Made by a program: the position numbers and the translations under genes. From the IMG/VR virus record IMGVR_UViG_2698536476_000014: DNA of 4,971 nucleotides, one strand, 5' to 3'. Positions 1 through 4,971 of the stretch are shown one piece after another (the stretch's first letter is position 1; each line of letters opens with the position of its first letter). Below the pieces are notes generated by a model. The model made no database searches. It was not told the origin of the DNA and was given only the letters and a program-made list of their open reading frames with translations. The stretch comes from a virus. Taxonomy: Duplodnaviria > Heunggongvirae > Uroviricota > Caudoviricetes.

Positions 1-55
1 TCTGGCAGCCTGAGTTCACAGATAAAATACTCTCCAGGAAACCCGGGGCGGTTCA
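1..55 (+). mobile_element. Terminal end of an IS3-family insertion sequence (IS629/IS1203-like right end); includes the last three codons and TGA stop (11-13) of the transposase
   Basis: Bases 1-55 are the exact reverse complement of 4813-4867. The sequence ends in ...GGAAACCCGGGGCGGTTCA, which I recognise from memory as the IS629 right terminus. Not database-verified. Confidence 0.75.
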
Positions 56-235
56 CTCAGGCGTTTCGTGAGTACCTTTAGCCTGAATCTGCGCTCTGCT
101 TAGAGTAGGGCGGTGTAATACTTCTGAACTTATTGCTTCTTCGCGGGCCAGTACGCCGTTAGCTAATGCCTTTGCCTTTAAACGCTCACGACGACGAGAA
201 CGTGAATTGCCTTTGAACTGAGTTCTGCGTGTCAT
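53..235 (-). CDS. N: N-like transcription antiterminator, truncated after codon 60 by the IS insertion; the TGA stop is supplied by the IS terminal TCA at 53-55
   Basis: Arg-rich N-terminal motif (TRRTQFKGNSRSRRRERLKAKA) typical of lambdoid N proteins. Strong SD (GGAGG) 6 nt upstream of the ATG. Lies about 165 nt downstream of a boxB hairpin, as in lambda. Full-length N proteins are about 100-130 aa. Confidence 0.6.
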   Translation of the reverse strand: MTRRTQFKGNSRSRRRERLKAKALANGVLAREEAISSEVLHRPTLSRAQIQAKGTHETPE

Positions 236-400
236 ATAGACCTCCTGATGAACTTTGGTGGTGTGGTAGGTGGGAGACCCATTTCGACCTGTTTCGGCCT
301 ACTTCAATTCGGCAATAGTCCCGCAGGCCTCGCCGCTTTACGTGCGACATATTCCCGTCCATGAACCCTTCACCACACCCCAAAGTTCACTTTGGTTATT

Positions 401-415
401 GCGCTTTGTCAGCGC
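401..415 (-). promoter_or_regulatory. nutL boxB RNA hairpin (5-bp stem, GACAA loop)
   Basis: Minus strand reads GCGCTGACAAAGCGC, a perfect 5-bp stem with a 5-nt loop. It matches the P22-type boxB as I recall it and shares the 13-nt core CGCTGACAAAGCG with the hairpin at 3914-3928. No convincing boxA was found upstream. Confidence 0.6.
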
Positions 416-484
416 CGTAGATTCATATTCGAATCGTTGTATATTCACCGCCCTGGTGAGTAATGCGTCCTGCTGACGACGATA

Positions 485-513
485 ATAATGAACCAATAGT
501 TCGACATTATCAA
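485..513 (-). promoter_or_regulatory. Candidate pL promoter: -35 TTGATA (508-513), 17-bp spacer, -10 CATTAT (485-490), read on the minus strand
   Basis: Hexamers and spacing read directly. The downstream leader (466-476, minus TCAGCAGGACG) resembles the lambda pL transcript leader as I recall it. Confidence 0.4.
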
Positions 514-523
514 GAACTATTGG
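493..523. promoter_or_regulatory. Perfect 10-bp inverted repeat CCAATAGTTC-N11-GAACTATTGG overlapping the candidate pL -35/spacer; possible OL operator or other protein-binding site
   Basis: Arms at 493-502 and 514-523 are exact reverse complements. They overlap the promoter hexamers. Confidence 0.35.
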
Positions 524-696
524 TACGAATTTTGGTGATTTATTAACTCTACGAAGTATGATTCTGATATATAAGGAAATTTATTTTTGAAAATGTGGCT
601 GATGAAGGTTATGCGGCAGGGATCATAACTGCATGGTTTAGCGAGTTACATCAATAAATACAATTGGTTATGTTTTTTAGGTGGGCGAACGTGAGG

Positions 697-723
697 CAAA
701 GAAAACCCGGCGCTGAGGCCGGG
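697..723 (-). terminator. Intrinsic terminator ending the leftward cI-kinase operon
   Basis: 6-bp GC stem (706-711 CCCGGC / 718-723 GCCGGG) with a 6-nt loop, followed on the minus strand by TTTTCTTT. It sits immediately after the stop of the small ORF at 724-726. Confidence 0.5.
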
Positions 724-888
724 CTAGATTTTAAAGTATTTATCTTTTAGAGATGTAGATGTAAAACTTTTCGCCTTTGAAAATTTTTTGTCATCAGAAG
801 GGCTTATGAACTCATCTTTTTTGTAGGGAACCGCTAATGCTGCATCACGTCTGCGAGGCAGCTTGCTTACTTCCTCGCGCTTTTTCAT
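724..888 (-). CDS. Possible small basic protein (54 aa, MKKREEVSKLPRRRDAALAVPYKKDEFISPSDDKKFSKAKSFTSTSLKDKYFKI), last gene of the kinase operon
   Basis: ATG (886-888) lies 2 nt after the kinase stop, with AAGGA 9 nt upstream. The stop abuts the terminator hairpin. It is absent from the ORF track, presumably because of a length cutoff. No homolog recognised. Confidence 0.3.
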   Translation of the reverse strand: MKKREEVSKLPRRRDAALAVPYKKDEFISPSDDKKFSKAKSFTSTSLKDKYFKI

Positions 889-890
889 GA

Positions 891-3647: not shown

Positions 3648-3875
3648 ATGCAAAATCTTGATGAGCCGATTAAAGGTGTCGGCATCCCTGAAGTTGCGAA
3701 GGCTTGTGGAGTTAGCGAAAGGGCTGTCTATAAGTGGCTCAAAAACGGCTTCCTCCCTAAGACTGAGTTTTTTGGGAAAACTAAATACGCATCAAAAATC
3801 GAAGAGATTTCTGGTGGCAAATATCAAGCAAGCGAAATGCTTGAAATAAGCAAAAAGAACCTTCTGGCTGCATAA
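3648..3875 (+). CDS. cro: Cro-like HTH repressor, 75 aa
   Basis: Small HTH protein (GIPEVAKACGVSERAVYKWLKNG) divergent from cI with a good SD. The track ORF 3658-3849 in another frame is rejected. Confidence 0.8.
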   Translation: MQNLDEPIKGVGIPEVAKACGVSERAVYKWLKNGFLPKTEFFGKTKYASKIEEISGGKYQASEMLEISKKNLLAA

Positions 3876-3913
3876 GTAACACCGCTATTTTCACAATGGA
3901 CATTCGTCCTACG

Positions 3914-3928
3914 TCGCTGACAAAGCGA
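3914..3928 (+). promoter_or_regulatory. nutR boxB RNA hairpin (TCGCT-GACAA-AGCGA)
   Basis: Perfect 5-bp stem with the same GACAA loop and 13-nt core as the nutL hairpin. A possible boxA-like CGCTATTTT lies at 3883-3891, at a non-canonical spacing. Confidence 0.55.
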
Positions 3929-3957
3929 GTCCCAATATATCTGACCAACTAAGGCCA

Positions 3958-3975
3958 TATGCGTTTCCACGCATA
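3958..3975 (+). terminator. Candidate tR1-like hairpin (7-bp stem TATGCGT/ACGCATA, loop TTCC) between nutR and cII
   Basis: The stem-loop is read directly. The downstream U-tract is weak (CCTTTC), so if it is functional it is probably Rho-dependent, as lambda tR1 is. Confidence 0.25.
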
Positions 3976-4013
3976 CCTTTCAACTAGCTATTCACTATTG
4001 GAAATCTTAAGAA

Positions 4014-4310
4014 ATGGAACAAACAAGTTACAGCAAACTATCACAGCGAGAAATTGATCGCGCTGAAACTGATTTACTCATCAACCTGTCAACGCTTACC
4101 CAGCGCGGTCTGGCAAAGATGATTGGCTGTCATGAATCGAAGATAAGCAGAACAGACTGGAGGTTTATAGCTTCGGTCTTGTGTGCTTTTGGCATGGCAT
4201 CAGACATCAGTCCGATTAGCAGAGCTTTTAAGTATGCGCTTGATGAAATCACAAAGAAAAAATCCCCGGTGGCCGCCGGGGACTCTAAGCAAATTGATAT
4301 GCAATTCTGA
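4014..4310 (+). CDS. cII: CII-like transcriptional activator, 98 aa
   Basis: Position between cro/nutR and O. Size and sequence resemble lambda CII (97 aa), including a C-terminal ...KKK.P.AA....QI.M.F pattern. The overlapping +frame ORF 4183-4383 is rejected. Confidence 0.75.
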   Translation: MEQTSYSKLSQREIDRAETDLLINLSTLTQRGLAKMIGCHESKISRTDWRFIASVLCAFGMASDISPISRAFKYALDEITKKKSPVAAGDSKQIDMQF

Positions 4311-4332
4311 GGGAATTACTGGATCAATCCAC
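4256..4332 (-). ncRNA. oop: oop-like antisense RNA (about 77 nt) with intrinsic terminator inside the cII 3' end and promoter po inside the O 5' end
   Basis: Minus-strand terminator: GC hairpin at 4264-4281 followed by ATTTTTTCTTT. Candidate po: -35 TTGAGT (4363-4368), 17-bp spacer, -10 CATAAT (4340-4345). The implied length of about 77 nt matches lambda oop. Boundaries are approximate. Confidence 0.5.
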
Positions 4333-4342
4333 AGGAGTCATT

Positions 4343-4852
4343 ATGACAAATACAGCAAAAATACTCAACTTCGGCAGAGGTAACTTTGCCGAACAGGAGC
4401 GTAATGTGGCAGATCTCGATGATGGTTACGCCAGACTATCAAATATGCTGATTGAGGCTTATTCAGGCGCAGATCTGACCAAGCGACAGTTTAAAGTGCT
4501 GCTTGCCATTCTGCGTAAAACCTATGGGTGGAATAAACCAATGGACAGAATCACCGATTCTCAACTTAGCGAGATTACAAAGTTACCTGTCAAACGGTGC
4601 AATGAAGCCAAGTTAGAACTCGTCAGAATGAATATTATCAAGCAGCAAGGCGGCATGTTTGGACCAAATAAAAACATCTCAGAATGGTGCATCCCTCAAA
4701 ACGAGGGAGGTTCCCCTAAAATGAGGGACATCCCTCAAAACGAGGGAAAATCCCCTAAAACGAGGGATAAAACATCCCTCAAATTAGGGGATTGCTATCC
4801 CTCAAAACAGGGTGAACCGCCCCGGGTTTCCTGGAGAGTGTTTTATCTGTGA
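4343..4852 (+). CDS. O: Replication initiator O, N-terminal fragment only; native sequence ends at 4812, and 4813-4852 is read-through into the IS end
   Basis: The translation MTNTAKILNFGRGNFAEQERNVADLDDGYARLSNML... matches the lambda O N-terminal domain as I recall it almost exactly. The gene contains the ori iterons, and coding continuity is broken at the IS junction. Confidence 0.8.
   Translation: MTNTAKILNFGRGNFAEQERNVADLDDGYARLSNMLIEAYSGADLTKRQFKVLLAILRKTYGWNKPMDRITDSQLSEITKLPVKRCNEAKLELVRMNIIKQQGGMFGPNKNISEWCIPQNEGGSPKMRDIPQNEGKSPKTRDKTSLKLGDCYPSKQGEPPRVSWRVFYL
4691..4812 (+). repeat. Lambda-type replication origin iterons: five complete copies of about 18 bp (TCCCTCAAAACGAGGGA-like) and a sixth truncated by the IS insertion
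   Basis: Copies at about 4691-4708, 4711-4728, 4730-4747, 4750-4767 and 4774-4791, with a truncated copy at 4797-4812. Each has internal dyad symmetry (TCCCTC...GAGGGA). Confidence 0.8.
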
Positions 4853-4971
4853 ACTCAGGCTGCCAGATCATCGTTTCCGATGGAAGCATAATAAGCTTTT
4901 TCTGCTTCTGCCGGGGGAGTATGGCCCAGCCTTTCCAGCAATCGTCGATTGTTATACCAGTCCACCCACGT
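4813..4971 (-). mobile_element. Terminal end of an IS3-family insertion sequence (IS629/IS1203-like), inverted relative to the copy at 1-55 and continuing beyond the window
   Basis: 4813-4867 is the reverse complement of 1-55. It begins TGAACCGCCCCGGG, an IS3-family-type terminus. Confidence 0.75.
4855..4971 (-). CDS. IS3-family transposase (orfB) C-terminus, partial: ...TWVDWYNNRRLLERLGHTPPAEAEKAYYASIGNDDLAA*
   Basis: The minus-strand translation is open to the window edge and stops at TGA (4855-4857). The C-terminal WxDWYN motif is typical of IS3-family transposases. Confidence 0.7.
   Translation of the reverse strand, partial: TWVDWYNNRRLLERLGHTPPAEAEKAYYASIGNDDLAA

Follow-up and report, generated by a model that had tools for sequence, protein, structure and literature searches.

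Two IS629-family copies at the ends of an Escherichia coli draft contig probably mark separate insertions into genes N and O of a 933W-type prophage

The window, that is, the whole 4,971-nt stretch of DNA analysed here (IMG/VR record IMGVR_UViG_2698536476_000014), carries the immunity region of a lambdoid prophage of the phage 933W type between the ends of two insertion sequences (IS) of the IS629 family, copy A on the left and copy B on the right. The arrangement is probably the outcome of two independent simple insertions, each with a 3-bp target duplication (GAG in the antiterminator gene N, GGG in the replication gene O), with the rest of the prophage lying beyond each IS. A first-pass annotation, made from the letters alone, had seen an immunity region bracketed by two inverted copies of one IS end, and had named two insertions, an IS-mediated rearrangement and an assembly collapse as possible origins. 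We found that contig LOGE01000162.1 of the Escherichia coli draft assembly GCA_001606545.1 (4971 bp) is identical to the whole window. The window is thus one whole short-read contig with both ends inside separate IS629 copies; it ends in IS because a short-read assembler cannot resolve a multicopy repeat, and since the window is an entire draft contig, the apparent bracket is the point in a multicopy IS at which the assembler stopped. A collapsed assembly does not describe this well, as the whole 4971-bp contig ends in multicopy IS and its ends, which differ by a single-nucleotide polymorphism (SNP), belong to two copies. Nor is "rearranged module" an apt description of what is an ordinary prophage contig ending in IS629 copies. 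A literature search found no papers on the accession (LOGE01 / GCA_001606545), nor any on the combination of IS629, antitermination and Shiga toxin (Stx).

The two junctions are made up of the following features:

Positions 1 to 55, plus strand: last 55 nt (right inverted repeat, IRR) of IS629-family copy A, with the IS body to the left of the window and the variant T at position 28.
Positions 2 to 10, plus strand: last three codons (LAA) of the copy A transposase, with the stop codon at 11 to 13, read directly.
Positions 56 to 58, no strand: CTC, which reads GAG on the strand of N; of the two copies of the 3-bp target duplication in N, this is the inner one, from comparison with contig L002 (see below).
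Positions 53 to 235, minus strand: N', 60 of the 127 codons of N, with a TGA stop supplied by the IS end; from the list of open reading frames (ORFs), with a weak Pfam N_peptide match (E=4.8e-4); full N is 127 aa in contig L012 (E. coli O157:H7 F7349).
Positions 4343 to 4852, plus strand: O' (phage part 4343-4812) with a 13-aa tail from the IS end; Pfam Phage_rep_O at residues 22-115.
Positions 4690 to 4812, plus strand: iterons of the replication origin (ori), five complete and the sixth cut in its G-run; from a repeat finder and comparison with native phage.
Positions 4810 to 4812, no strand: GGG, presumed inner copy of the 3-bp target duplication in O, from the G counts of the window and contig L018 (see below).
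Positions 4813 to 4971, minus strand: last 159 nt (IRR) of IS629-family copy B, whose body is to the right; its stop codon occupies 4855-4857, and the final orfB codons run off the window.

Both arms are the same IS terminus. They finish ...CCCGGGGCGGTTCA, which is the right (IRR, orfB-proximal) end of the annotated IS1203/IS629 elements of F7349 and of phage JLK-2012, right after the transposase stop, and the stops of the two copies lie on opposite strands. The IS bodies point outward and the copies are mutually inverted, as the first-pass annotation had read them. Its further claim, that 1-55 and 4813-4867 are exact reverse complements, stands as to the coordinates and falls as to exactness: the arms pair at 54/55 positions, the sole mismatch setting T28 opposite G4840 where A would be needed, and the IS copies read T and C there. 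Because they differ by this SNP, the two ends come from two separate IS copies. When 1-55 was used as a query, the only matches in the window were 1-55 itself (plus strand, 0 mismatches) and 4813-4867 (minus strand, 1 mismatch); such a match was obtained in 0/200 dinucleotide-preserving shuffles, so that none is expected by chance. An apparent 56th pair from the repeat finder, C56/G4812, is flanking DNA and not IS. A circular molecule closed by one IS was also considered and was rejected, both ends being the same IRR terminus and differing by the SNP.

The assignment to the IS629/IS1203 group of the IS3 family follows from terminal inverted repeats starting TGAACCGCCCCGG and from near-identity to reference copies. 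The IS1203 of F7349 is identical to the left arm at 54/55 positions and to the right arm at 157/159, the left arm agrees at 55/55 positions with the IS end found at the N junction of contig L006, and the right 159 nt have 100% identity with IS copies carried by pO103 and by many other E. coli and Shigella plasmids, and match the IS of E. coli HM670 at 158/159. The right end matches a different isoform from the left end, one present on pO103. The full-length IS in L002 (at the N junction), HM670 and F7349 is 1310 bp long, with orfA/orfB and an annotated frameshift, of which the window holds 55 + 159 nt only.

At the left junction, copy A interrupts N after codon 60 of 127. Uninterrupted N reads cctGAGcgcatag / ...ACGCCTGAGCGCATAGAAGAC..., and the plus strand of the window reads IS-CTC. 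What a full insertion at this site looks like can be seen in L002 (CDDIMJ010000005.1, a 1.09-Mb contig; the other L numbers used here likewise denote E. coli contigs that were compared), which at 10181-11493 has the site filled: it reads cctGAG, then the 1310-bp IS, then GAGcgcatagaag, with GAG on both flanks. Beyond the IS come the rest of N, cIII, kil and other early-left genes, and then int. The N insertion of L002 has the classic form of a simple insertion that duplicates 3 bp. Its immunity region differs from that of the window, and homology to the window stops 408 nt from the junction. The allele is widespread: the assembly collection has the 60-aa N' in 124 blocks and on 105 contigs, some of the entries being named 'phage early gene regulator N [E. 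coli O145:H28]', and both L002 and the O145:H28-named cases share with the window the junction …CCTGAG-TGAACCGCC… and the 60-aa N'. Other immunity regions than that of the window accompany the junction in L002, L003, L007 and L010, and in all four the homology reaches no further than 408 nt from it. Native N beyond the duplication begins CGCATAGAAGAC; the IS left end being CCGGGGCGGTTCA, the sequence expected with GAG after the left end of copy A is GAGCGCATAGAAGACGC. A likeness between the N target (GAAACGCC) and the IS end (GAACCGCC), at 8/12 positions, was not significant by a rough estimate that allowed for offsets and strands, and was set aside.

At the right junction, copy B sits in the origin of replication, which lies within O. 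Native phage reads ...AAAACAGGGGGACACAAAAGACACTATTACAAAAGAAAAAAG / ...TCCCTCAAAACAGGGGGACACAAAAGACACTATTACAAAAGAAAAAAG..., with five Gs in the sixth iteron, and the window reads CAGGG-IS, which leaves three of the five Gs ahead of copy B. The insertion parts the iterons from the A/T-rich portion of ori, which is absent from the window, and cuts the 312-aa O protein inside codon 157/312 (156 2/3 codons kept). This junction is on record for LOGE01000162.1 only: the O'-IS fusion ORF at 4343-4852 was recorded for exactly that one contig, as protein KYS08378.1, 'replication protein [Escherichia coli]'.

We predicted the protein that the reciprocal O junction would encode, composed of residues from the IS left end, QG and O residues 158-312, and looked it up exactly at several overhangs. 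One of eight overhang/isoform guesses was found, a 182-aa protein with a 77-nt overhang (P0116, MEL2630578.1, E. coli). The contig that encodes it, L018 (JAWPTY010000048.1), opens on 77 nt of IS left end; GGGGGACACAAAAG and the remainder of O come next, and behind them P, ren, ninB, dam, ninE, ninX, rusA, Q, three cargo genes, holin and lysozyme. Native O beyond the duplication begins GGACACAAAAG, and the sequence expected with GGG after the left end of copy B is GGGGGACACAAAAGACAC; the junction in L018 is IS-GGGGGACAC, with five Gs. Because the window keeps three Gs and L018 five, where native phage has five (3+5 = 5+3), the two halves point to a GGG target duplication at the O insertion, as pieced together from the window and a contig of another assembly. 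A homology search with the predicted chimeric O protein returned only ordinary partial O proteins, and P0006, a protein starting at residue 158, was rejected as an IS junction, being a contig-end truncation. The prophage in L018 is of the 933W-O type, and its cargo between Q and holin (3881-7524) consists of a lipocalin, a DUF1722/2-thiouracil-desulfurase-like protein and an AraC-type regulator, and not of stx.

The relatives of the window bear on the order of the two events. The same T variant of the IS end is found at the N junction in L006, L009 and L011, which are of the window's immunity type. L008 has the N junction, shows no difference from the window over the 4757 interior positions, and has O and P intact; L006, L009 and L011 are 1-2 SNPs away from the window, with O intact, and P also as far as each contig reaches. 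The O insertion came later than the N insertion, since near-identical relatives carry the interrupted N with an intact O. Judged from these sequences, the N insertion is the older, shared allele, and the O insertion a later addition specific to this strain or lineage.

The length of IS retained at contig ends seems to follow the assembler. It is 55 nt at the left end of the window (1-55), 77 nt in L018 (1-77) and 28-30 nt in Logan contigs (the ends of L005 and L007-L011 included), and k-mer lengths of 55, 77 and 31 are assembler settings of SPAdes and Logan, 55 being a common choice. The overhangs are consistent with tracking the assembler k-mer, though this falls short of proof. For the scanning of other records, the lesson is that when the ends of a sequence are reverse complements that match an IS terminus, the first question is whether it is an entire draft contig; if so, an overhang of 55, 77 or ~30 nt indicates the assembler k-mer rather than biology and is a quick sign of repeats at contig ends.

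Several results weigh against two simple insertions in this strain, or at least leave the case for them indirect. The contig stops short of the outer flank of either IS copy. The first-pass annotation had proposed to look there for matching duplications and for prophage sequence that continues; the signs of both come from other genomes, through L002 and L018, and not from the flanks of this strain. Exact look-ups of 10 predicted reciprocal N-junction proteins, the 55-nt overhang included, found none, look-ups of the reciprocal O proteins with a 55-nt overhang likewise found nothing, and no hit came from the window's own assembly. Neither the N nor the O junction was found in 5,426 complete E. 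coli genomes, where the N site was searched with the IS in either orientation, and neither was found in the GTDB representatives, the JGI metagenomes or IMG/VR, with a gapped pattern for the reciprocal O junction included. L018, moreover, is from another assembly, and its O remainder differs at 17/472 positions from that of L008, the closest relative of the window; it may record a separate event at the same site, or the same event in a recombinant prophage. Lastly, the right overhang of 159 nt departs slightly from a simple k=55 rule, as the last isoform difference (4915/4919) predicts an end at 4970/4974 and not at 4971, and its length shows that copy B differs near its end from the other copies in that genome. 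None of the 17 differences in L018 (3.6%) appears to change an amino acid when set against the O protein of O157.

On balance, the two-insertion reading, one of those put forward in the first-pass annotation, is favoured by the GAG duplication and continuing prophage in L002 and by the reciprocal junction in L018 with O, P, nin, Q and lysis genes behind it. The competitor that we take most seriously, while still considering it unlikely, is an IS-mediated rearrangement in this strain, following simple insertion or taking its place, that would make the region a detached prophage remnant, whether by inversion of the 4.76-kb segment between the copies, by recombination with another IS629 that moved or deleted the prophage, or by arrival of copy B through an adjacent deletion. 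Inverted copies are just the geometry that allows inversion, which would keep both inner junctions as observed, so that the window itself offers no counter-argument; partners would be plentiful, with 22-25 copies of IS629 in O157 (PMC3271280) and up to 53 matching places per genome; and the right junction is recorded for a single contig, no reciprocal of it having been found for GCA_001606545.1. Yet the inner junctions fit the signatures of simple insertion (GAG/GAG in L002, and 3+5 Gs with L018), the close relatives with the interrupted N have O and P intact and colinear, and we found no positive evidence of a rearrangement.

An assembly artefact, in the form of one or two chimeric IS junctions or of reads from different loci or similar prophages joined through the IS, appears very improbable. 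The source is a short-read draft contig ending in repeats, E. coli of this type often has several near-identical lambdoid prophages, and the O iteron region commonly breaks assemblies, as seen from many partial O proteins at contig ends. Set against this, the interior is 100% colinear with 933W, the left junction has been reproduced independently in many assemblies and by other assemblers, the right junction lies inside the contig and runs 159 nt into an IS isoform known elsewhere at 100% identity, and L018 supplies the matching reciprocal junction in an independent assembly. Least credible of all is a compound transposon, in which the inverted IS629 pair and the cI-stk module would move as a unit and spread immunity and exclusion genes independently of the phage. 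Here geometry alone speaks in favour, in that the IS pair is inverted, has its left ends outward and encloses a self-contained set of cI, cro, cII and stk. The other halves of N (L002) and O (L018) lie directly beyond the IS, which would give each IS its own duplication; the combined structure occurs in one contig only, and the unit was seen in no other context in the collections searched. A single outer duplication and unrelated contexts, as would mark such a transposon, were thus not found, judging by L002, L018 and the lack of the unit anywhere else. The resemblance to Tn10 and Tn5 accordingly ends with the inverted IS pair around a module: the window has no evidence of joint movement, and each IS apparently has its own duplication. 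IS3-family elements move by copy-out-paste-in, via a circle of the single element.

Insertions of this kind are ordinary and already known, and it is the exact positions that are absent from the complete E. coli genomes searched. IS629 makes 3-4-bp duplications, and 62% of its copies in O157 lie within prophages (PMC3271280). A documented case of IS629/IS1203 insertion in Stx-type prophages is phiPA2 versus phiPA8 (PMC10810198). The insertions in Stx prophages of enterohaemorrhagic E. coli (EHEC), namely 933W/Sp5-like prophages, JLK-2012 and phiPA2/phiPA8, share with the window the IS family, the prophage type, the immunity region and probably the 3-bp duplications, and can alter phage behaviour. 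They differ in their sites, which are intergenic downstream of N or in a methyltransferase gene, whereas the window has N codon 60 and the sixth ori iteron. The F7349 insertion (L012 1420-2729) is an IS1203 downstream of N, flanked by ...GATTT / TTTTG, which is a TTT duplication; it represents a third, different insertion near N in 933W-like prophages. JLK-2012 has yet another IS629, between an N-adjacent ORF and ssb. A closer parallel to the right junction comes from the complete genome of E. coli O2:H1 HM670 and from five others like it, which have an IS3-family insertion of the same IS type and orientation in a lambdoid O. In HM670 the insertion is simple, the duplicated bases are GAC, and the O remainder, P and ren follow directly after it; unlike copy B, this IS lies 117 nt further downstream in O, past the A/T-rich region of ori, and the immunity region differs from that of the window. 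The L002 prophage also has an IS21-family element in its replication-gene region (4642-6443, with ORFs for an rve-domain transposase and an IstB-like ATPase), and has thus been hit by two IS families.

With two simple insertions as the most plausible history, copy A would have inserted in N after codon 60, giving an older allele common to many strains, and copy B would later have entered the G-run of the sixth ori iteron within O, in this strain or lineage. Each step would have been a copy-out-paste-in event with a 3-bp duplication, and the missing prophage parts are most likely to be found on the far side of each IS. The functional consequences proposed here are drawn from lambda biology. N' would retain the arginine-rich, RNA-binding end of the protein and lack the C-terminal half, while O' would retain the origin-binding half and lack the P-recruiting half, with the origin itself split. 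Such a prophage would be locked in place, presumably unable to antiterminate or to replicate, and hence non-inducible. As cI, cro, cII and stk are intact, immunity and exclusion functions could persist, with cI and the Stk kinase still being expressed. This would be a routine kind of prophage decay, and one that matters when phage or toxin release is predicted from draft genomes.

The only mildly unusual point of the locus is that both target sites look recurrent. The N codon-60 site (window 53-58) carries IS in both orientations, L005 (8424-8450) showing the left end and L002, L003 and L006-L011 the right end, and the IS at this site, with its GAG duplication, occurs together with at least four immunity regions and with two variants of the IS end. 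At least two independent events have taken place at the N site because both orientations occur. For the ori G-run (window 4798-4812; L018 1-90), the complementary junction stands in a prophage with a 3.6% different O remainder. It is tempting to see IS629-family hot spots in N codon 60 and the last ori iteron, at which prophages would be grounded repeatedly, and at the same nucleotides; we regard this as doubtful. A single old event at each site, which recombination then carried from prophage to prophage, together with one coincidence (the second hit), may account for the same pattern.

The region between the IS copies is a lambdoid immunity region, as the first-pass annotation had said. Positions 56-4812 (4757 nt) are 100% identical to and colinear with positions 9269-14025 of phage 933W (AF125520), in the order N'-nutL-stk-cI-cro-nutR-cII-O'/ori, and are likewise 100% identical to other Stx2a and Stx1a phages and to many O157:H7 chromosomes. 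Divergent cI and cro, cII, N with nutL and nutR, and O with its iterons, all in the lambda order, identify it as a 933W-type lambdoid early region. Apart from the junction features given above, it contains:

Positions 399 to 420, minus strand: nutL boxB hairpin GCGCUGACAAAGCGC, the inverted-repeat partner of 3909-3927, with a 5-bp stem, a GACAA loop and -8.5 kcal/mol.
Positions 724 to 888, minus strand: 54-aa hypothetical ORF, conserved among 933W-type phages.
Positions 891 to 1937, minus strand: stk, a eukaryotic-type Ser/Thr kinase, intact; Pfam Pkinase E=2.2e-46, annotated as stk in 933W and JLK-2012.
Positions 1931 to 2392, minus strand: 153-aa ORF, intact; 'RuvC-like' or hypothetical in phage records, no Pfam hit.
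Positions 2460 to 2801, minus strand: DUF3024 protein, intact; Pfam DUF3024 E=1.2e-30.
Positions 2862 to 3569, minus strand: cI repressor, intact; Pfam Peptidase_S24 and HTH_3, annotated as cI in 933W.
Positions 3648 to 3875, plus strand: cro, intact; helix-turn-helix (HTH) hits, annotated as Cro.
Positions 3909 to 3927, plus strand: nutR boxB hairpin UCGCUGACAAAGCGA, from the 19-nt inverted repeat with the nutL boxB and from folding.
Positions 4014 to 4310, plus strand: cII, intact; Pfam Phage_CII E=1.1e-31.

The two hairpins were identified as boxB by their resemblance to the boxB of phage P22, and they are of the P22 type rather than the lambda type. An Rfam scan of the window gave only sub-threshold H/ACA snoRNA hits (27 and 26 bits, well short of the gathering scores) at 4691-4810, which coincide with the iteron palindromes and are spurious. 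A direct repeat of 15 nt with no mismatch, CCAAACGTCTCTTCA, is present at 2444-2458, just downstream of the DUF3024 gene, and at 2815-2829, just downstream of cI. Around the copy downstream of cI, the minus strand at 2811-2846 reads AGNQWPEETFG*, which resembles the C-terminus of lambda cI; the stretch looks like a relic of another repressor gene at the boundary of a mosaic module.

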